Shown here: piece after piece, positions 28,135 through 52,537 of the stretch | Numbering within the stretch: position 1 is the first letter of the stretch | How the letters are laid out: each line of letters starts with the position of its first letter | Sequence record: MH494197.1 | DNA from: Escherichia phage CMSTMSU | Strand: one strand, 5' to 3' | DNA: 64,000 bases | The notes under the pieces: generated by a model | Told to the model about the DNA's origin: nothing | Database searches by the model: none | What the model saw: the letters and a program-made list of their open reading frames with translations, nothing else | Position numbers and translations under genes: made by a program

Positions 28135-28466
28135 TCAATTAGGCGTTGGAATGGGTTTGTGGCTCGAATTCAGAAGGAGTTTTGAAATGTTCAGTACTGG
28201 AGCATCAGCATGTAACTTTGACATACGTTCTTTGTACTTATCTAAGTATTCTTCATATAACATATCTTCAGTGTTACTATTAAGTATGTCTTCGATAAAT
28301 GAATCAATACTATAGTCCAGTCTATCATCATTATAATACAAAGTTTCACTAGCTTCATCATAACCAACTAAAGTTCCGTATGGAACATTAATCTCAATTT
28401 TGAGTACTGACTCTTTAAGTACTCTTCTTTCTTAAAATGTATACAGTTAACATTGGTATCCTCCAT
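28135..28466 (-). CDS. Hypothetical small protein (frame break)
   Basis: ORF 28135-28341 plus upstream start with SD GGAGG. Confidence 0.3.
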
Positions 28467-28489
28467 AGTTTTATGTATTTAGAATTTTA

Positions 28490-28516
28490 GTCAAAGAAAA
28501 GGACTCGAAGAGTCCC
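28490..28516 (-). terminator. Intrinsic terminator after the capsid gene
   Basis: Minus-sense GGACTC-ttcg-GAGTCC then TTTTCTTT. Confidence 0.55.
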
Positions 28517-28559
28517 TATTGTTTTAATTTCTTGATTAAATCTTTTAAATCGATTACAA

Positions 28560-29803: not shown

Positions 29804-30931
29804 TTAAAATGCTTTAAAATGTTTATTTTTATTGATACCAGAAAGAACATCGAGTTCTTTTAGGAATGCCATATCGTCAGCGGTCATTTCTTCGCTTTCA
29901 ACAATAGCCTGACGGTTGCCAGTGATTACTTTACCTTCTGCAAGAGTTCTCTTAGCGGAAGACTGAACTGCTTGACGAGTGGTAGCAGATTCATTTACTT
30001 TAGTACCGTTAAGTACTGACTTATGGTACTTGCTGAAATCGTCTTTAAGCTTTTCTGTAGGAGAAGTAGCTAGAAGGGATTCCATAATTTGTTTCTGTTG
30101 TGTAGTTAGTGGCTTAACTAGTTCAGACATAATCGCATTACGAGCTTGTGAATCTTCCATAATACGTAGTTTGGTTTTAGCAGCTTTAACTTCACTTACA
30201 GTTTCATTTAGTTCTTTCTTAACTTGAGCAATTTCGTCTTCTTTAGACTTGATTGATTCAGTTAGGGAACGTAGTAGTGAATTCTCATTAAATTGTTTGA
30301 CATTAAACTCTTGAGCAAATGCTTCAAAGATTTTACGACCAAACATATTTTGTTTTGCTTCAACAAGATCTTCTTTCAAAGCGTATAGGTTTTTCTGAGT
30401 AGTTTCTGCAATATATTTAGCAGCACTTTCAGATGTACGTTTGATGAAGTTGTTACGTGCTTCAGCAATTTGACGGAGCCTTCAGCTAGTTTAACGCGAG
30501 TTTCAACTAGTTGACGTTTCTCGATGTGGAATTCTTTTAGCTCTTCTGCTAGGATACCGTTAGAGAAATTAACGAATTTATCCATGCATTCTTGAAGATG
30601 CTTACGTTCTTTACGCATTTGTTTAACTTCTTCAGCCAAAACAGAGTTAGAAAACGCAGAGAAATTACTTAGGGTTTTGCGGAGAGTTACACGATCTTCT
30701 ACAAGACGTTTTTCTCTTCATATACTGCACCCATTTCTTCAGCGATAACTTGAGTAACCATAGTATTTAGACCTTCGGTTAGCTCAGACAAATCTTGTTT
30801 GTAGCGGCCTTTCATTTCTTCACGCATTTCTGCGGCAAGTGTGTTTTTTCTTCATTCCATGCTTCCTGAATTAGCTGTTTTGCCTCATCAGAAAGAGATG
30901 ATTCTTTTAGAAGCTTTTCTAATTTAGACAT
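29804..30931 (-). CDS. Prohead scaffolding protein, gp22-like (frame-disrupted)
   Basis: Coiled-coil K/E-rich ~375 aa between protease and capsid genes. Confidence 0.5.
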
Positions 30932-31636: not shown

Positions 31637-32478
31637 TTATTTAGTGTTAGATTTTTGGTTGTGATTTTGGTAGTGGAGAACGAGATTTAGAAGCGGTATT
31701 TTTGGCTTCGCAACATCTTTCATTTCGCCACGAGCATTTTTACCTAGGTCTTCATCAGTGTGGGACATAGCATCTTCGTTTTCAAAATCATAATCTACTT
31801 GTTTTTCGGAAGCTTTAGCGAATTTCACTGGAGCAACACCTTGAACTGGAGATTTAGCTTCTGGAGCAACTGGGGACTTGGTATTAACGCCAGCTTTTTC
31901 TTTCTTATCAACCGCAGCAACTTGCTTAAGTTTGAAAGACTCACCAACTTTCTCATCACCGAATTGTACATCAGCAAATTCGTCTTCAGATTCTTCACCA
32001 TCAGCACCGAATTCTTCTTCCGCACCAACTTCAACTTCTTCGTCGTCAGAACCTAGGTCAACTTCATCACCACCGATTTCGTCAAACATTTGTTGTAGGC
32101 CACGGAAAGCATCTTGAATAGATTCCCATTGGTCTTCGGAAGGAACTTCTGCACCAACTTCTGCTTCAGCGTCAACTTCTTCGCCATCAGCATCAGCAGA
32201 GAATTCAACTTCTTCTTCTGCACTTTCATCTTCTTCACCTAGGGTGTATTCGATTTCAGCATTTAGACCAGCGTCTGGTTGAACATCAAAGTCTTCGTCA
32301 AGTTTTTCTTCGTCTTTGACTTCAACTTCACATTCTTCTTCGTCCATGCTTTCTTCTAGTTCTTTATTGATTTCTTGAGCTTGCTCAACAAAGTACTTAC
32401 GCATTTTTTATCAGCAACATCTTGTTCGCCGTTTGCAAACGCTTCAATTGCTTCTTGTAGTAGTTTTAAATTCGCCAT
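31637..32478 (-). CDS. Highly acidic prohead core / internal scaffold protein
   Basis: Long E/D-rich tracts; between portal and protease; cTAAATAA upstream. Confidence 0.45.
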
Positions 32479-32865: not shown

Positions 32866-34600
32866 TTATTTATGATTAAAAGAATCGCCTAAATTATTCG
32901 GGTTAAAACCTGCACTTCCTTGTTGTTCTTGGTATTCAGCATCGGCACTTTCTAAGTTACCGTCATCATCAATACCCAAATCCATACCGGGATCGTTAGG
33001 AGCATCTATACCAACAGATTGCAACCCAGCAGCATCTTCTTCACCACTTGACGGAGCGGAACCATCTTGTGGATTTTCTTGGAGCCACATTTGCTCATTC
33101 TTAACAATATCAGCTTTAGAAAGCCCATTTTTCAAGAATAGTTTGTTTTGCCATATATGGCAGATCGTTAAGTGGGAGATAGGTGTTAATTAGTTTAGCA
33201 TCTAGTTCCGCTTTACGATAAGCCAAGTTAATAGGTGGATTCATAATTACTTCAAAAGATGAAGTACTAATGTTATATCCATTTTAACCATAAAACGTTT
33301 AAATTCTGCATCAAATAGTTTTGCAACTAAACGTTGATAACGCATACATTGGTTATTAAAACGTAATTCACTTGCCATTGCTTGTGTTGCACCATCACCA
33401 AATAGTGATACACCACCATCATCTGGACCTTGCGGTAGATATGAAGCTGGGATTTGCAAACCACGAATCAATTTATTGTTGAAGTAACGCAAGTCATCAA
33501 TCTGACCTAAGTTATCACCACCGGAAGTGTTTGTACATCTGAACCACGACCTTCAGAAGTTTGTGGGAAGAAGTAATCTTCTAGAATACTTAATGGATTA
33601 TATGCTGCATCCATTAGAGAAGTACTGCCACCTTTATTTGAAGGAATACGTCTTTGGTGAATTTCATTTTTGAATCGTTCTACGTATGCCATTGCTTGGT
33701 GAGTTTGCATATCACCAACGTCAATTTTAAATACACGACGCTCTGGAGCACGTTGAACACGATAGATAATAATACTATCTTCAAGTAATTCTTTTGTTTA
33801 TAGACTTTGAAAACATCTTCAAGTATACTAGTACCAAAAGGCCAAACTCCATCTTGTCCTGTATTTAGGGTTAGATGAATTACATGTTCTGCACCAACTG
33901 GAATAACATCAAGACGACCGTTAGTACTGAATGGGTCAGCAGAGTTTCCTTGGTTAGTAAAGCCAGATGCACCACCTGCTGCCACTGAACCACCACCACC
34001 TAATGTGGTAGGGATTGCACCGGGTATGCAGTTTTATCAAATCCAACTTGTAAGTTACTAAACACTTTATCTTTAAGATTCAAAGATACGTCACGAATAT
34101 AATAAATTACAGGGTTTTTCCGGTTGCTTCGTTAACGAATACTTGTTCAACGTTTTTGGGCTTACCCAGTACCAGTCAAATGTTTCTGGGTCACGAATGA
34201 AGAATTGGTCACCATATTTTAATAGGCCACGTACAATTTCATACATTCTGGTTTTAAAATCATTTTGTTCAGTCCATGCATCCAAACGGTCTTCAATAGT
34301 AGTTACTTCTGTATCACCAATATCATCTTTATATTTGATTTTATATGGAAGACCAAAATCTTCAGTACTTTGTGTACAGAAGTCAGCAATGATATTAAGT
34401 GCTGTTCTAATTTCAGGATCTTGGTCCATCTGTTCATACTGACTATAACGTTCAGTACGGTTAGCTAAACCATTGTATACTACTGGAAGATAGGAAGCGA
34501 AATTTGTTTTCGTTCCTGTTGATTTGTTGCTATTACTGGACTGATTAGGGACGACCGATAACTTCGATCTCCCCATTGTCATATGTCGTTTCCAACTCAT
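32866..34600 (-). CDS. Portal protein, gp20-like (frame-disrupted)
   Basis: ...EDYFFPQTSEGRGSDVQTLP... and ...LRFNNQCMRYQRLV... parallel T4 gp20; acidic C-terminus. Confidence 0.75.
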
Positions 34601-34612
34601 TATTGTTCGTCC

Positions 34613-36790
34613 TTAACTGTTTCTCTCACCTTGGGTGTTTTCAGAGATAGTTCTTAGATAATTATTTGTCTGTTGTACAGCAGATAGTGATTGTTCATTA
34701 ACATCGGCAAGCTTTTTGAGTATTTCTTTCATTTCATCAGAAATCGGTGCTGGTGGTCCAGTTCTCGATGTCACTGCACTACCATTATTTATCATCTTCT
34801 TAATTGCCTCTGTATCGTCAGGTTTTGGTGGAACTGGTGGTTCACGGTGCCCATGCAGTTTTATCAAAATCTTTACGAGATACAGTTATTTCTGGAGCAA
34901 CGTTATTGGTTTTCAATAACAGGACGAATACGTTCTACTCGGACGGTTGAATAAACTGTCAGCATAATCAGATGGTAGTGGTTTTGGTTCTTTGTAGTTA
35001 CGTGAGGTGTTCCATTTGTTGAACTTATCCCACATCCCTGCAAAATAATCACTAACACTATTTACACCGTTGTCAATGATGTTGTTTACGCTTTCTGCTG
35101 GGGTTTCAGTACTGTTATTGAGTTTTATATCATTATCAGAACCACCACCGAACCAACTTTTAACAGAATTCCATAGGTTACCGGTAAATCCATTAAGTTA
35201 TTCATAAAGGTATCAAATGCTTCTGACACTTTAGAGTAACCTGAACCGAATATATCTGCACCCAATCCATCCAACCAAGCTGTAAATTCAGCACCAATAC
35301 GATCAAGGTAAGCAATTGCATCTTTAGCAATAGGTACTAACCCAAATCCATCAAGAGCCAATTCCCCAATAAACTCCCATGCACCATCAGTTCTGTCTGC
35401 AATGTCTGAAAGATAATCCACAATTGAATTTTGTGTATTAGCATACATTGTATTAAATGGTTCAGTGAATTCTTTACTAATCCACATATTGAAGCGGTTA
35501 GTAAATTGAGTTAATTTATCAGCGGGATTATTTTTAGGTTCATTTACGGTTGCTTCCATATCCAATAGTTGTTGGTAGAAGGTTGCAGCAGTTGTGTTTC
35601 CTAATTGAATCTGGTTAAGCAAATCTTGCTTAATTAATTCTTTATTCTTTTAACGAATTCTAATTGTTGGCGACGAATTTCTTGTGAATCAGTTACACCA
35701 CTACGTACAAGATTTTCACCTAAATCAGCGAACTGGTTCAGTACTGGAGTGAGTAGGTCATCCGGTACACCACCAATAGACAATCTGTGTGATATCAAAC
35801 GGAGGAAATCTGCACCTGCATCACCCATTGCACCCGCAGCTTCGTTGAACGCCTTAGATGTTGCTACAGCAGCTTTACTGGATAGTCCAGAGTAGTTCTG
35901 CAATGCAATTTGCATAGAACGCGTATCGAGTGATTTATCTAGGTTTTGTGTTTTGTTTAGTAATGCATCAACGGATTCACCCATGCTTTTACTGAATTTA
36001 GTCATGCTCATGATGAATTGTTCAGTACTTTTAGCTTGTCCATACTACGAAGAGCTTCACGACCACCATATTGTTTTGGAACTTAATGTTTCTTGCAGTT
36101 AAATCAGTTAATGTTTTTGAGAAATACCATAAAGGCCAAGTTCATTTTGAGCTTGTTGAACAGTTCCTAATAATTTACCAAAGGTAGCAACACCATCACC
36201 ATATGCCCCATCCAACTGAGCTACTACAGAACTATGTGTTTGTAGAGCTTCACTGAATCATCCATACTCAACATAGATGCACCTGCACCTTTCAGTACTG
36301 AACCATAACCTTCAGCCAATGCAACACCAGCACTGTTAATTCTGGTATATACTTCCAATTGTGCATTAAGTGCGTTATATACAGCAAGACCAGCACCAGT
36401 AACGAGTTTAAATGCTGCTGCCGCTGCACCAATTGGACGGCATCATTGCTAATGAACCAGCAAATGATGATGCACTAACGCCTAATGAGTTTACTACAGT
36501 ACTTACGTTCGTACTGGAGTTCATCATTGTTTTGCTTACATTGGAAACTTCAGAAGATAGTGATTTGAACAATTTACCAAATGCTTTCCCATCATCGGCT
36601 TGTGCACTTCCACGATTACTGGAAGAACTGGAACTGGAACCATTCTTTTTACCATTTGAACCTGATTTTTCTTATCATTCTTTATATTTTCAGCTAATAA
36701 CTCACGGATAGCAGTCAAACTATCATTGTTATCTTTAGTTTGATTAACCAACTGCTGTAGTAGGTAATCACTTGTATTGACAGCCATAAC
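34613..36790 (-). CDS. Large helical protein(s), ~725 aa total, frame-disrupted; possibly two genes
   Basis: Continuous coding across ORFs 34613-34867, 35125-35622, 35634-36011 and upstream frames; Ser/Ala/Gly-rich segments. Confidence 0.35.
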
Positions 36791-44487: not shown

Positions 44488-44930
44488 ATGGCAGATTTAC
44501 AAAGTTCTGTTGATAATTTTAAAATGATATTTCAAACATCACAAGTTCTGCAAAGGCAGCAAAAGAAACTGCAACAAGTACTATTGAAAGCTTAAAAGCC
44601 ACTGCTAATACTTTGCAAAATGATCTTGAAAAAGTAAAAACAATTTTAAAGCTAAGGTTAGTAACGTACAGTCTTTACCAAAGCAAAGTGCAAGCGTTGA
44701 CCAAGTGTATGAAGACTTGGATCTAAGTGAGTTTGTTATTCCTTATGACAATAAATTGTTAAAGTATGACAATCCAACTTGGCACTTTTCCCGCATTAGA
44801 CAAGGATGATTTCAAAACTTCTGGCTTTACCCAGATGCTGAAGTTCAACGTCATGTCATCTCTGAAAGTGGTGTAACTGGAAAGTATAATATCACAAGTG
44901 TTCAGATGACACAAGCTGGTCCTTCAACTC
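44488..44930 (+). CDS. Hypothetical structural protein (frame-disrupted)
   Basis: SD GGAG and ATG at 44488. Confidence 0.3.
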
Positions 44931-44933
44931 GGG

Positions 44934-45803
44934 ATGACAACCAACTATTGCTTCAACACAGCAGTACTGAACCTTTCAGAAAACAATAGTATGAGTTTAT
45001 ATGATGAACTAATTTCTTTAAGTAATAAACTAAGGTATCATAAGTTCATGGACTTACCTTTGATATTAGAATTGAAATTTATTGGATTCAATACTAATGG
45101 TGTACCTGAAACTATACCAGAAACAACTCGTAGATGGTCCGTGAAGATTAACAGTGTTACCGCTAGTGCATCACAAAGTGGTAGTACTATGCTGTATTCT
45201 ATGAGTCTTGTTCATAACCGTGCGGCTCTAGTGGATAATGTGGAATGGACTCTTAAAGAACCATTTACCTGCACAGCAGAAAACTTTGGTGATTTTTGTT
45301 TTGATTTGGAAGATAAATTGAATCAAATGGCAGACCAGCAATATGGTTATTTGCGTTATAAATTTGGTGAGTTAGCAGAAGGGAAGTTCTTTGAATTCAA
45401 AGTTGCACCAGATTTACAGGATTTGTTTATAAACTATGATTCTAAACAGATGGCAGAAGCTGGAGCTACAAAAAGTGGTGCACAGGGTTCTAAAACTTTT
45501 CATGGAATCCAAGTACTCCAATTTCTCGAATTATCGATGACGTAATAGATACCTGTACTGTACAGGCTGATGATAGTACTAGTGTTCGTCAATTTGTTAA
45601 TATAATCCCACTTAAACAGTATGTTGGATTTGATAATTACCGAAACACGTCAGTTTATAAAGTTGTTTTCTATATAGTTCGTTTTAAAATTGGTGATATT
45701 GTTCATGAATCCGATTTACAGCCAGAAAACTTTACATTTGAGTATTTCTTTGAAAATGCCGAGAAATATGTAGACCCAAATGACCAAAACCAAAGATTAA
45801 CAT
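44934..45803 (+). CDS. Hypothetical structural protein (frame-disrupted)
   Basis: ORF 44934-45545 continues in another frame to ~45803. Confidence 0.3.
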
Positions 45804-46727
45804 GAAAACTTACAATTATCAGTTTAGTGGACTCAATAGTGAGATTCTAGACCTTGATTTGAAGTTTGATCAGCAATTCTTTGTAGCTACAACTCGTAAC
45901 CCGGTCCAATACAGGACGTTGCGAACCATGCTGGTACACACATCACAAGAATTGAATATCCAAGGTGTTCAGTACAACAGTATACCAGATGCGTGGGCAA
46001 AACAAGTGATTTACGCGTCACACGTGATCTTGGTGGTATATTAACACAGGCACAAGAGCAACTTTTAAATCGAGTAGAAACTTTAGCAAGAGAACAAATG
46101 CAGGTTGGTAATGCTGAAGAACAGGATCGTTATAATAACTATCAAGTAAACGTTCTACCACAGTATATTGAAGATTATGTAACCACATATGAAGAAAATG
46201 ACGGTGGAACCGATGGAATTGGTCATCGATATGGTGAAGTATTCACAATGCCAACTGAAGCAACCAATAATGAAACAACATTATCTGCATCATTGAACGA
46301 TAACAGTAGTACATATGAAATGGACCGCCGTAAAATTCGTGACAACTATTACAATCGTCCATTCTTGTGTAAATTGGATATGCGTGTAGTTGGTGACCCA
46401 TATTGGTTAGGTTGGAGTGATTATTCATATATCCAATATCTTGAACAGGTAATTAATGGAGAAGATATGGAAATTAATCCAGAAGATTACCATGTAGCAA
46501 ACTACATTACATCTGAAGCATATCTTTTATTGAAATTACAACCTGTAGTTTCTATAAATGATAACACTGGTGTTCTTGATATTAATACCCCAACTACATT
46601 TAACCAAACTGTTTATCGTGTAAACAAAATTGTTCATGATTTTGGTGCAGGTGGATCATTTACACAACAAATTCAGGCTGCAATTGTAATTCGTGCACTC
46701 AAACGTCACGATAGTATAATTGAATAA
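45802..46727 (+). CDS. Baseplate hub candidate, gp27-like by position (frame-disrupted)
   Basis: ~310 aa immediately upstream of the spike gene. Confidence 0.3.
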
Positions 46728-46740
46728 GGAATAATTTAAG

Positions 46741-48255
46741 ATGGCAGATACAAGTAAGAAATATGCCCAACAACAGTTGGGTCGTTTTGACCCTTCGTAT
46801 CCACAACTAGCAACCGTGATGGATAACCGTGACCCAACTAAATCCGGTAAGCTAAAAGTGTGGATTCAAGGTTCACAAAGTGATAAAAATTCAAAAGAGT
46901 CATGGATTGAAGCATCATACATGTCTCCATTCGCTGGTAAAACTCGGGATACCAAGTGCTGATGCTTATGGTCAATATCCAAAGGGATATGGTTTTGGGC
47001 AGTTCCACCTGATGTCGGATGTACTGTTGTTGTTATATTTGCACAAGCAAGAACATTCCAAGCGTATTGGATTGGTTGTGTTTATGACCAACGTATGAAT
47101 ACGATGGTTCCGGATGGCTACTGAAATAAGCAATTATGCAGGTACTGATATGCCATTACCCGTAACTGATTATGACCGTAATACAATTTCTACCAGTACT
47201 CAAGACAAATATGCAAACGTTCCAATTATTGCAGGTCTGAAAAACAAAACTTACTTTATGATGAGGAAGCGGGTGTTGCTAACCGTAGCAGTACTCGCCA
47301 AACTACCAGTACTGTTTATGGTCTTTCCTCACCTCGTGGTAACAGTTTTATTATTGATGATGGTTACACAGAAGAAGAATTAACAGCACCTACATGGGAT
47401 CAAGATCCAGATGGTTATCAGGATACCCAATTCAATAACCCAGTGAACGATACTCGTGTTGGTTCTCGTAAAAATGAAGGCGTTGTAATTAAAACACGTA
47501 GTGGTGCACAGTTGTTGTTATCTGAAGCCTCTGGTGATGTTCTTTTAATTAACCGTGATGGTACTGCACGTATTAAATTCACTGGTGAAGGTGACATTGA
47601 AATGCACTGTGATAAGAATATTAACATTCGTGCAGGACAAGATATTAACATGGTTGCGGGTCGCTCATATAATATTGAAAGTGGAGCAGACTTCAATGCT
47701 CGTGTTGGTGCAAACACTAAACTAGATTTGGTTGGTGCATTGGATGCTAAAGTTGGTGGTCAGGTTGTTATTAACGCTGGAGCAGATTTACGTTTAGTAA
47801 CAGCAGCTTCATTACGTATGCAAAGTGGTAGCAGTACTGATATAACTGCTGGTTCTAATGCGTCAATCTCTGCTGCTACCAGTGCTAATCTTATTGGTTC
47901 TTCATCAGCTATTATTAGTGGTGGTGGTCAAACCCTTACTGTTAACAGTGGTGGTAATAGTGGTACTGCTGAATTTAATGCACCAAACTTCCGCACCCCA
48001 TCTGCTGGCTTGAATGATCATATACATGATATATCGGCTTGGGTTGATGCAGAGAATCACGGCAGTACTGTTGAACCTCCACGTCAAGGTGGTGGTAGTG
48101 GGAATAGTGAATCCCCAGTTCAACCCGAACCTGCTAATGATGTAGCTCCAACTTTAGCTCCAGTACAGGACACTGAAGCAATTCAATATGTAAATTATAC
48201 AACAGAAACAGAACAAGTTCAAACACAAGATTTAATGACTTCTGATCCGGCATGA
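46741..48255 (+). CDS. Baseplate central spike, gp5/VgrG-like (frame-disrupted)
   Basis: N-terminal ...DNRDPTKSGKLKVWI...; C-terminal beta-helix repeats; no lysozyme domain inside. Confidence 0.7.
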
Positions 48256-49393
48256 CTGGTTATAGCATTACGTATGAAGGTCTTCATATGTTCATGCCGT
48301 GTAGTGGAACCATTCGCCAATACGGTTATTGGGGAAAGGTGTCCCGACTAGTGGTGGTGGTAAAGCTGATAGAAGTGGCTGGGAAATACAGTGCAAGGGT
48401 GATGTTGTAGCTCCAGATGGCGGTGTAGTTGTTATCACTAATGGTGCTTTATTGGTTCAACATAAGTCTGGATATAAATCTGTATTTTATAATATTCAAT
48501 CAGATTTGCTCAATAAAGACGTTGTTCAAAAGGTCAAGTTATCGGGAAAGCAAATGGTGTTATACAATTTGAAATACGAGTAACTTCTGCCAACGTACTA
48601 GGATTTAGTGGTTCTGTTGACCGGATTATTTTATGCATCACAGACTGGCACAGGTTCTGAAGCGGGAAATAAAACATTAATTGCAGGACAAGCAACGAAC
48701 CAAGCAGCACCGAAAGCTGTTGTTCAACCTTCTGTTGATAGTGATGAATTAGTTGTCACAACTAAAATTAAAACTATCGGTACTGGGTATTCTCAACGTG
48801 GTTCTCGTCATGTCCCTCGTCGTAGAAGAACACAACGTTCAGGTGGTACTCCAGTACCTACGGCACAAGAATCATACAATGTGGGTAATGTTGATAAGAC
48901 TGCAATTGATTGGAAAGTTGTTCCGGGTGATTCACAATTTATTTCTGAATTGAAAGAATATGAAGGAACAATGGCGTATCAACAAGCTAAAGGATATTAC
49001 CGCAATGGTAAATTTTGGAGATATTTGGATAGTCGTGGATTCCCAACTATTGGTTACGGTCACTTGATTGTTAGTGGTGAAAACTTCTCTGGTGGGATTA
49101 CCGAACAGGAAGCCAATGATATGTTGGTGCGTGATAGTAGTAAGGCTATATATGACGCAAAATCCATTTACGCTTCTTATAAGATGAAAACACCTTACAT
49201 GGCACAACAAGTTCTATGTCAAATGGTATTCCAGATGGGTAAAGGTGGTGTAATGAAATTTAAGTCAATGCTATCTGAAATGGCAAAAGGTAACTACAAG
49301 CAAGCTGCTGCTCAAATTCGAAATTCAGCTTGGTATCGTCAAACTACACGCCGTGCTGAATTAATGGCACGTAGATTAGAGGCATGTCAATAA
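48252..49393 (+). CDS. Peptidoglycan hydrolase: M23-like N-terminal region fused to GH24 lysozyme (frame-disrupted)
   Basis: ATG overlaps the spike stop (ATGA); N-terminus has M23-like pattern but lacks canonical HxxxD/HxH; C-terminus ...TIGYGHL...QMVFQMGKGGVMKF...SAWYRQTTRRAE... is T4-lysozyme-like. Confidence 0.55.
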
Positions 49394-49430
49394 ATATTTC
49401 AGTACTATAAATAATAATGAGGAAATCTTT

Positions 49431-49913
49431 ATGAGTAAATGGGAAATCAAAAATACCGACGAACAATTTTTAAAGAAATTAAAGAATTTGAAGGTACTAT
49501 TGCGTATCAGAAAAACTTGGTTATTTTAAAAATGATAAGTTTTGGGTATATAAAGACAGTCTAGGTCTTGATACCATTGGTTACGTCACCTTGTACTTAA
49601 GGGTGAAAGTTTCAAAATGGACTCACTGAAGCAGAAGCTGATGCTCTCCTTATAAAAGATGCTCAGACCGCTTACAATGACGCAAAATCAATCTATGATC
49701 AATTTGGAATGACTGCTCCAGTACAGGTTCAGCGTGTATTGTGGTTTATGGTGTTCCAAATGGGTAAATCAAAAGTTTTAAATTTCAAAAAGCGATGGCT
49801 GCTCTCGGTCGTGGTGATTATAAAACTGCTGGTAAAGAAATGCGTGATAGTTCGTGGTACAAACAAACCACATCCAGAGCGGAGAAGATGGCTCGCATCG
49901 TCGAATCCGTATA
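49431..49913 (+). CDS. Second GH24 lysozyme paralog (frame-disrupted)
   Basis: ...FEGTIAYQKN...TIGYGHL...FMVFQMGKSKVLNF...SSWYKQTTSRAEKMA... Confidence 0.55.
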
Positions 49914-49928
49914 ATAAAGGAAACACAT

Positions 49929-50389
49929 AATGGCAATTGTTTTAAAGGTTTTTCAACTCCAGTGGTTGGAAGAACTGAAACATTGTATGACAGTGAATTG
50001 GTTCGTCAGGATTTAATGAATCATTTCAATACAAAAAAGGTGAACGTGCATTTGATGCTGATTATGGGTTCATTGCGTGGGATTTGCTATTTGAATTGGA
50101 TGGTTATAATACAATCAACCTTTTGGAAGCAGATGCCCGTAGAATTATTAGCTTGGACCCACGTTTAAGCTTAAAGAAACTTCAAATATCAAGAATTGAG
50201 TACGGTTATCAGATGGATATAGTACTTGAATATGTTATTCTCAATACTCTTGAAGAATTAACTATAGTTTTGATGCAAGAAGTAACAACAGAATGGCTAC
50301 CTATTCTGTATCATCTTTTAAATTATAAAAGCACTCTTCGGGTGCTTTTCTTTTGGATAAATATTTCTATATATAATTCCCAGTACTGA
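49929..50389 (+). CDS. gp25/GPW-like baseplate wedge protein (frame-disrupted)
   Basis: ...LVRQDLMNHFNTKKGERAFDADYGFIAWDLLFE... matches the gp25/GPW family pattern. Confidence 0.55.
50327..50356 (+). terminator. Hairpin with UUCG-type loop and T-run
   Basis: GCACTC-ttcg-GGTGC then TTTTCTTTTGG; lies inside the nominal 3' end of the gp25-like ORF. Confidence 0.45.
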
Positions 50390-50421
50390 ACTAGTACTTT
50401 ACTGATTTAAAGGAATAAATT

Positions 50422-52537
50422 ATGTCACAACAAAAAGGCAATCAAATTTATACGCTGGTGAAGATTGGACTCAAGTATATGAAAGCTTTTATAAGATCAA
50501 TCTAACAGCTTATGACTTTGATACAATCCGTCAAAGTATGATTGACTATCTACGTGCTACGTACCCAGATTCTTTCAACGACTGGATCGAAAACGACCAG
50601 TTCATCTTTATTCTAGATACCATTTCTATGCTAGGACAGAACTTAGCATTCCGTATGGATTTAAACACTCGTGAGAACTTCCTAGATACTGCTACTCGTC
50701 GTGCATCAGTACTGAAACTCGCAAAAATGATTTCTTATTCTCCACGCCGTTCATATCCAAACGCAGTTGCTAAATTAACAGAAATAAAACCAACCAAGAC
50801 GTTCGTAATAGTTTTAACGAATCACTTAAGGATAAAATCATTCGTTGGAATGACCCAATGGACACAAACTGGTATGAGAACTTCATTCTAGTTATGAACA
50901 GTTCATTTGTCAGTACTAACCAGTTTGGTAATCCGGTTAAACGTATCGATATCAATGGTGTTTCTCGTCAGCTATATCGTATGAATACAATTCCAATGTC
51001 AGCACCAAGTCTTCCATTCACAGCTACAGTTAATGGTGAATCGATGACATTTGAAGTTGTCAACCCTGATATTACAGCAGTTGGTGTTGAAGAGCGTCAC
51101 CCTGAACCACAAGAGCAAAAATATATCGTTTATCAGAATGATGGTAACGGATTTAGTTCACCAAATACTGGTTTCTTCGTTTATTTTGTTCAAGGGACAT
51201 TGACATACCAAGATTACCAATATAATATTCGTGAAGAAAACCGTATCCAAGACATCAACGTAGATAATATCAACGAAACTGATGTTTGGGTTCAGGAAAT
51301 CAACGAAGATGGTATTGTACGTACTAAATGGACCAAAGTTCCATCTATGGAAAGTATCGCATACAATACGGTTAACCGTCAACTAAAACAATCTTTGCTG
51401 TCACAACTCGTGATAAAGACCAGATTACTATTAAGTATCCTGATTCTCGTAGTGGTGTTGTTCCTCGTGGACGTATCGTGTATGGTATCGTGTTAGTAAT
51501 GGTGAAACATACAACATTAAAACGTCTGAAATCCAGAACAAAAGTGTAAAATACACCTATAGAACCAAAACACAATCAAGCTATGAATCCAGTACTTTGG
51601 ATATTCGTTTCACATTGCAATATGAATCAGATCGTGCACAAAGTGCAGAAACAATTGAACAAATTAAGGCTCGTGCTCCACAAATGTATTACACTCAAAA
51701 CCGTTTTGTTAACGGCGAAGACTATAACATTGCTCCGTTGAGTTTGGGTAACACAGTTCTTAAATCTAAAGCAATTAACCGTTTATATAGTGGACAGTCA
51801 CGATTCATTGATATTAATGATCCAACTGGTAAGTATCAAAACACTGATGTGTTTAGTGATGATGGTTCAATGTATCAAGAAAACACACAATTTAATAAAT
51901 CTTTACAATTACCAACTACCAAAACAAATGCTAGTATTGTAATTGATAATATTCAGCCATTGATTGGTGAGAATGCTGTAATCCAACGTTATCAAGCATA
52001 TCCACCGAATACAATTGGTATTGAAATTCAACAAAATGGACACCTGAATACAATTCTAATTACGCAACTAATACGTATGGTCGTATTATGGGAGCAACAG
52101 GTAACGTATTCGGAAATTATCAAGTTGGTACGTTGATTAAGTTTTCAAATGCCGGAACCACTGTGTGGGCTAGTATTGTTAGTGTTCTTGATAATGGATA
52201 TTACGTTCTAAGTACTTCAGTTTCATCAAATATGCAAGCACAAGAGTACATTTTACAATACAGAACACGTTTTAATAGTGTCGAAGTGCAAGCAATCGCT
52301 GCAATGCTTGATAAAAAGACAGATTTTGTTATTATTCATGATAAAGAAACAACTTCTTGGATTCCATTAGAAATCAGTACTGATGAAGATACTATTTCTT
52401 ATAATGGAAATGAAGTTCTTGTTATGATTAACATCAAATATACTGCTGAAACATGGGAATTTGATGCGAATGGCGTTGAATATGTGTTCGTTGGTGGTGA
52501 TAAAGTTCGTTTTACTTCGTTTCTTCTAAAAAGATAA
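50422..52537 (+). CDS. Baseplate wedge protein, gp6-like by position and size (frame-disrupted)
   Basis: ~700 aa over six ORFs immediately after the gp25-like gene. Confidence 0.4.

Follow-up and report, generated by a model that had tools for sequence, protein, structure and literature searches.

Does the interval 46741-49914 of a 64,000-nucleotide stretch of Escherichia phage CMSTMSU (sequence record MH494197.1; the whole stretch is called the window below) encode a central tail spike that has parted from its lysozyme, or are spike and lysozyme a single protein? The initial annotation had read the interval as three genes on the plus strand: a gp5-like spike with an OB fold and a beta-helix and no lysozyme domain, a lysin whose ATG at 48252 overlaps the spike TGA at 48253-48255, and a second lysozyme of the GH24 family. 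Taken jointly with the mechanism that we propose below for the spike, we consider it highly probable that the interval holds two genes and not three, and that the division into a lysozyme-less spike and a lysin is an artefact of bases lost from the sequence.

By its sequence matches, the window is jumbo coliphage DNA of the Asteriusvirus type (PBECO4/121Q/RaK2-like). Region 46000-50500 matched 39 phage records, all of them Asteriusvirus or RaK2-like jumbo myoviruses of 320-385 kb; the closest were nine records at 97-99% identity, including WPEC3 and, each at 98.7% to the window, BF17, EC.P1, and fEgEco12, and about thirty more distant records (PBECO4, SP27, and phAPEC6 among them) matched at ~84%, the nucleotide identity to PBECO4 being 84%. 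In WPEC3, PBECO4, and BF17 a single coding sequence (CDS) of 2,664 nt, encoding 887 residues, covers 46741-49393; RaK2 and XaC1 likewise have one CDS of similar length (2,661 and 2,643 nt, respectively), and one fused protein is encoded in all eight close and ~30 more distant annotated genomes. The window as given has a series of short open reading frames (ORFs) at this locus, at 46741-46962 (73 aa), 47114-47383, 47443-48255 (270 aa), 48252-48410 (52 aa), 48329-48583, and 48608-49393 (261 aa), followed by fragments from 49431 to 49930, and a tblastn search found that the 887-residue BF17 protein tiles the window in three frames over 46741-48249, 48249-48338, and 48332-49390. This tiling, the repaired ORF described below, and a PHROG match identify 46741-49393 on the plus strand as the central tail spike/tail lysozyme gene known as gp078 in RaK2, CBB_240 in CBB, and Gp241 in phAPEC6. 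The intact ortholog, on which the Pfam and PHROG domain calls reported here were made unless a raw window ORF is named, matched PHROG 13211 over residues 1-887 of 887 (1768 bits). A search of 5.8 billion proteins returned 85 clusters of full-length homologs (869-984 aa, mostly 880-900) down to 35% identity, including proteins of Cronobacter GAP32, Yersinia fHe-Yen9-03, Erwinia pEa_SNUABM_50, and Xanthomonas XaC1. The repaired window protein is 99.8% identical to that of BF17, 79-87% identical to the next Asteriusvirus-level clusters (P0002 and P0003), and 51-63% identical to the GAP32, Yersinia, Erwinia, and Xanthomonas phage proteins.

The junction at which a separate lysin gene was thought to begin (48249-48255) reads CC-GGCATGA in the window and CCTGGTATGA in the relatives, where it lies in frame as CCT GGT ATG ACT (P-G-M506-T); the intact protein runs across it as ...DLMTSDPGMTGYSITYEGL..., and its residues 498-530 are DLMTSDPGMTGYSITYEGLHMFMPCSGTIR. 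Because the T of CCTGG has been lost, the window shows both a false spike TGA and a start-like codon at the internal Met506, so the overlapping gene start was a product of the missing base, and it was a mistake to call the spike lysozyme-less: by comparison with the relatives the ORF continues in frame through the lysozyme domain. This was one loss among many. Compared base by base with WPEC3, region 46000-50500 (4,501 window bases against 4,524 in each close relative) had 54 mismatches and 20 indels, and all 20 of the indels were deletions in the window, nearly all within CC(A/T)GG or runs of at least five identical bases. Over the 36.8 kb of the window that can be aligned to BF17 (27269-64000) there were 288 mismatches, 139 deletions, and 1 insertion. 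Each of the 22 CCWGG sites of BF17 was altered in the window, 19 of them with a deletion, against 1 of 48 sites for the control motif GCWGC, 1 of 16 for CGWCG, and 4 of 53 for GATC, which gave no enrichment. Homopolymers of at least six bases were shortened at 33 of 36 BF17 sites and those of five bases at 49 of 115, compared to less than 1% of the more than 26,000 runs of three bases or fewer. As for coding capacity, the aligned stretch holds 24 CDSs of BF17, and in the window deletions shift the frame of 22 of them, only two are intact, and one further BF17 CDS is absent from the window; the frameshifting deletions number two in the major capsid gene, nine in the portal gene, and eight in the late sigma factor gene.

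CCWGG is the Dcm methylation motif of E. coli, and a one-way, motif-specific loss of bases is the mark that uncorrected nanopore-type reads of Dcm-methylated DNA leave. Since the loss seen here is one-directional and motif-specific and would inactivate every essential gene, the sequence comparison indicates that it is an assembly artefact of a poorly polished sequence and not biology, and the signature probably extends over the whole window. Any overlapping start and stop, split gene, or pseudogene in the window should accordingly be treated with suspicion until relatives or polished reads have been consulted, because nearly every aligned gene is frameshifted. A few in-frame indels relative to BF17 lie at short tandem repeats (an insertion of CTT at 32035 and deletions of TAG at 30487, AAG at 33220, and the 9-bp TTCCACGAT at 36608); these look like true strain polymorphisms and not read errors.

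Within the spike gene there are eight frame-breaking deletions, at 46946 (2 nt), 46993, 47112 (2 nt), 47240, 48249, 48331, 48528, and 48623 (2 nt), every one at a CCWGG site or a homopolymer of at least five bases, and the gene is intact in the relatives. When only deleted bases were put back, 11 restored bases gave an 887-aa ORF with two residues unlike BF17. The gene of the 162-aa lysozyme likewise has one-base deletions at 49467, 49511, 49585, 49614, and 49787, and once these bases were restored the 162-aa ORF agreed with the BF17 protein at every residue. Beyond the two substitutions and the assembly errors nothing at this locus differs substantively from the orthologs already described, and its architecture is known: the unusual domain order of the spike protein and its weak M23 match were reported for RaK2 in 2013 (PMC3622015) and for CBB in 2017 (PMC5259590), where the 894-residue CBB_240 was given a gp5 OB fold at the N-terminus, a central domain that may be M23 (E 6.5e-4), and a lysozyme at the C-terminus, and was detected in virions by mass spectrometry. 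Gp241 of phAPEC6 was also found in virions, with seven peptides (PMC7247149), and the 95.9 kDa listed for it is the mass expected of the full-length fusion.

The prediction of a second GH24 gene was borne out. In the window this gene occupies 49431-49914 on the plus strand, 37 nt downstream of the spike gene (the CDS is 489 nt in relatives), and it was identified by tblastn and by PF00959 (37.3 bits against a cut-off of 22.3) as encoding a 162-aa ortholog of LysUE1, RaK2 gp073, and CBB_239. Its product is 50% identical, without gaps, to spike residues 728-886. The spike's own C-terminal GH24 (T4-lysozyme-type) domain spans residues 735-887 (48932-49393); Phage_lysozyme (PF00959), with the same cut-off, matched residues 765-882 of the ortholog at 42.1 bits and the raw window ORF 48608-49390 at 45.4 bits, the best match in the PDB by sequence was the lysozyme domain of T4 gp5 (1.2e-11), and Foldseek aligned the spike C-terminus to T4 lysozyme (T4L) with a template modeling score of ~0.70 on the target. 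The putative catalytic residues are E745, D767, and T773. At the positions of T4L D20 and T26 the spike domain and the 162-aa protein have the same residues as T4L, and conservation of E745 and D767 across the spike family is at least 90%. The catalytic Glu (T4L E11) was assigned by inspection and conservation to an E-G pair, giving E745 in the spike and E21 in the 162-aa protein; MAFFT misplaced it because of a 13-residue insertion downstream of the Glu, which lies between the catalytic Glu and Asp, is common to both GH24 copies, and sets them apart from T4.

A recent duplication had been offered as one origin for this pair, and it was rejected on the 50% identity and on cross-genus conservation, the order spike, 162-aa lysozyme, gp25 being kept in RaK2 and XaC1. 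By the same two observations, the sequences indicate that the duplication is ancient. The longer order of structural protein, spike, 162-aa lysozyme, gp25-like protein, and wedge is kept in relatives as far as Xanthomonas phage XaC1, with the exception that in RaK2 four small genes lie between spike and lysozyme. RaK2-like genomes have three GH24 loci each, and three lysozymes were listed for RaK2, namely ORF029, ORF073, and ORF078 (PMC3622015). A third copy inside the window was rejected, as tblastn of the 64 kb found two GH24 loci only; the third locus lies elsewhere in the relatives, and in the literature it corresponds to CBB_187, 121Q gp532, and RaK2 gp506.

What the 162-aa enzyme does is the point on which an alternative fares best. 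We propose that it would be a soluble, unpackaged muramidase of the cytoplasm or periplasm, most likely acting in lysis, alongside the third, membrane-anchored GH24 protein that would be encoded elsewhere in the genome. LysUE1, which is the 162-aa ortholog of Asteriusvirus UE-S1, has been purified, and it lyses E. coli permeabilised with EDTA (PMC12805682); its forward primer, ATGAGTAAATGGGAAATTAAA, shows one silent difference from window positions 49431-49451 and specifies the same N-terminus, MSKWEIK. CBB_239, the 162-aa homolog in CBB, was never confirmed as structural (PMC5259590). The protein could alternatively be a low-copy part of the baseplate or tail, such as an accessory tail lysozyme beside the spike and gp25, and this would account for a gene fixed between the spike and gp25-like genes of a late baseplate module from coliphages to XaC1; it also accords with the published endolysin candidate of the group being a different GH24 protein, CBB_187, which has a transmembrane segment and a LysM-like domain besides its lysozyme (PMC5259590). 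We nevertheless regard a tail component as unlikely, if not negligibly so, given that the protein was never detected in the virion proteomes of phAPEC6, CBB, or further RaK2-like phages, that it is a bare GH24 fold with no recognisable attachment domain, and that the purified ortholog behaves as a soluble Gram-negative endolysin. The initial annotation's contrast between a virion-associated hydrolase and a soluble endolysin broadly agrees with published proteomics: the 887-aa protein is in virions and the 162-aa protein was never detected there, but the endolysin candidate in print is the third, transmembrane-bearing protein. Virion proteomics and an activity assay, proposed at the same time as checks, had already been done on close relatives, and they show the fusion to be packaged and the small paralog to be lytic.

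For the spike gene itself, we weighed whether the split might be real in this isolate, a frameshift mutation having left a lysozyme-less spike and a lysin independently translated from the overlapping ATG. The window does read ATGA at 48252-48255, where Met506 could serve as a start, and there are natural shorter relatives, mostly of 500-580 aa, that align over the N-terminal OB and helix part only. Yet the putative lysin ORF from 48252 ends after 52 codons and needs three further corrections (48331, 48528, and 48623), another four are required in the spike part (46946, 46993, 47112, and 47240), and the eight break sites share the sequence contexts given above. The same damage is found in the capsid and portal genes and in 20 other CDSs, which no viable phage could bear; neither a Shine-Dalgarno signal nor a conserved split is seen in any of the 39 related genomes. 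We therefore hold a real split to be very improbable. Still less credible is a programmed frame change, by ribosomal frameshifting or transcriptional slippage, joining the separate frames: several breaks do fall in potentially slippery A or T runs, but in genomes 98-99% identical each site has an additional base and the frame stays open, and the deletions are spread all over the aligned window, including intergenic DNA and non-slippery CCWGG sites. Both were rejected on the one-directional, context-specific indels and the frameshifted essential genes.

Several observations weigh against the reading that we prefer. One of the 13 frame-breaking deletions of the two genes, that at 49585 (GG to G in GGTTACGGTCACC), lies outside any homopolymer or CCWGG site and is probably a random read error. 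The diagnosis of sequencing error is drawn indirectly, from the pattern and the comparison. RaK2 gp078 was undetected in RaK2 proteomics (PMC3622015). The gp25-like baseplate protein is likewise missing from the phAPEC6 and CBB virion lists, and because of this the failure to detect the 162-aa protein there counts little against its being packaged. In addition, the steps of the mechanism given below, namely the position of the C-terminal domains in the virion, the role of the degenerate LytM domain, and that of the 162-aa enzyme, derive from homology.

With one spike gene accepted, its domain content can be read along the intact protein, and the domains named in the initial annotation (OB fold, beta-helix, M23-like, and GH24) proved real in hidden Markov model searches, the M23-like one at a sub-threshold score. 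Phage_base_V (PF04717), the gp5-VgrG OB fold, covers residues 23-116 (46807-47085, plus strand) with 29.8 bits against a cut-off of 23.8; the raw window ORF 46741-46959 scored 20.1 bits, below that cut-off because the ORF is truncated. A triple-stranded beta-helix with DUF2345-type repeats follows at about residues 250-420 (47482-47994, plus strand), called from PF10106, an AlphaFold2 model, and Foldseek; DUF2345 (PF10106) matched residues 278-329 of the ortholog at 30.9 bits against a cut-off of 30.7, and the raw ORF 47443-48252 at 37.2 bits. The AlphaFold2 model, built from an alignment of 85 sequences, had a mean predicted local distance difference test (pLDDT) score of 76.5, with the helix mostly at 85-95 and its stretch of about residues 250-420 at 86-95; block means were 85-93 in the LytM-like domain and 81-90 in the lysozyme domain, and low-confidence linkers lay at 501-511, 660-663, and 701-718. 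It is a monomer model, and the placement of the C-terminal domains in a trimer is beyond its reach. Foldseek matched the N-terminal half to VgrG and extracellular contractile injection system spikes (7aef_q, 9jg9, 8gra, and 7b5h).

Between helix and lysozyme lies a degenerate LytM/M23-like domain without zinc ligands (residues ~520-640; 48291-48649, plus strand), recognised by a family profile, a sub-threshold Pfam match, and alignment. The Pfam Peptidase_M23 model matched residues 550-607 of the intact ortholog at 18.1 bits, under its cut-off of 28.7, and found no match in the fragmented window ORFs; the signal appears only with the intact ortholog or with the family profile, which we made from residues 508-645 of 22 family members. 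Against solved structures this profile matched LasA (2.1e-6), SpoIIQ (2.6e-6), DipM (5e-5), zoocin A (1.7e-4), and EnvC (0.06). The suspicion that the region is degenerate was correct, as HxxxD and HxH are both missing: this protein has R-S-G-W-E and V-I-Q in their places, the zinc ligands are replaced in 19 of the 19 diverse members displayed, and in every member of the family alignment that was inspected the HxxxD position is R/H/N-x-G-W-E/I/S/T and the HxH position V/I/L-x-F-E-I-R, only one histidine (H577) being retained in the region. An active M23 peptidase is ruled out by the absence of zinc ligands across the family, and the sequences point to a LytM-like fold that has lost its zinc site family-wide. 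In this the domain resembles the degenerate LytM domains of EnvC, NlpD, DipM, and SpoIIQ, which are the M23 fold minus zinc ligands and of which SpoIIQ, DipM, and EnvC are among the profile matches. Those are bacterial regulators or scaffolds (amidase activation, the SpoIIQ-SpoIIIAH channel), whereas the domain described here sits inside a phage spike, and we know of no amidase-type or channel partner for it.

The histidines at the end of the helix are the other unusual part. An HxH motif, H429-I-H431 (48019-48027, plus strand), lies directly after the helix and is invariant in the alignment columns of all 85 homologs, and 456 residues follow it to the C-terminus. In P2 gpV and phi92 gp138 the HxH is an Fe-binding histidine cage that has been used to recognise apex domains (bioRxiv 10.1101/2023.02.25.529910), and H429/H431 are likely a histidine cage or apex at the helix end, a predicted metal site. 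These proteins share with the spike the OB fold, the beta-helix, and a strictly conserved HxH; in gpV, however, the motif is ~12 residues from the C-terminus, whereas two more domains follow it here, and this HxH in mid-chain, followed by a long C-terminal extension that is enzymatic, is the only mildly new point of the locus. A bolder reading is that HxH forms a true Fe-loaded mid-chain apex, that the chain exits at the tip with three tethered dead-LytM and GH24 "warheads" ahead of or alongside the needle, and that the dead LytM domain, like those of EnvC, NlpD, and DipM, goes beyond peptidoglycan binding and recruits or activates host amidases to widen the hole; we think this improbable, and it is not described in the RaK2, CBB, or phAPEC6 publications. 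If the mid-chain Fe apex were true, the spike would correspond, in a phage, to the evolved VgrG effectors.

Known spikes place the protein further. Its full-length colinear match to the RaK2-type spike-lysozyme family (PHROG 13211) comes with the same four-part architecture and the same neighbours. With T4 gp5 it shares an N-terminal OB fold, a GH24 domain, and a triple-stranded beta-helix, but gp5 has the order OB fold, lysozyme, helix, and the order here is OB fold, helix, dead LytM, lysozyme; the gp5 arrangement with lysozyme between OB fold and helix was not found, the lysozyme match (765-882) coming after the helix (250-420). T4 gp5 also has no HxH, because its tip uses the PAAR protein gp5.4. 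As in T4, with its gene e lysozyme, the genome has a free GH24 paralog, which is distant from the spike gene in T4 and adjoins it here. Evolved VgrG proteins of type VI secretion systems carry C-terminal effectors, an example being Vibrio cholerae VgrG-3 with its peptidoglycan-hydrolase domain. These proteins are alike in having a DUF2345-type spike helix and then a C-terminal cell-wall-degrading domain; the present spike differs from them in having no fused gp27-like N-terminal module, in belonging to a phage baseplate module, and in that its effector is a GH24 domain after a dead LytM.

From these likenesses we propose that the spike trimer would plug the tip of the tail tube, and that sheath contraction would push the helix through the outer membrane; three tethered GH24 domains could then cut peptidoglycan locally so that the tube passes. 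The dead LytM domain may be a peptidoglycan-binding or positioning module, not a peptidase, flanked by flexible linkers that would set it between the HxH-ended helix and the GH24 muramidase. The locus is a well-conserved variant of the tail lysozyme, known before, in which the muramidase stands after the membrane-piercing helix and not before it, which is of moderate interest for the study of contractile injection systems.

Directly upstream of the spike gene, 44488-46727 encodes a 751-aa structural protein (ortholog at L001 1473-3728) that had no informative Pfam match and matched PHROG 11190 only; its location would suit a gp27-like hub protein that partners the spike. At some distance, beside the major capsid gene, BF17 has an extra gene for a 368-aa protein (L003 1191-2432) where the window has ~90 bp (about 28453-28544). 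Treble-clef zinc finger, DUF723, and T5orf172 domains matched the 368-aa protein only weakly and below threshold, pointing to a mobile insertion of the homing-endonuclease type.

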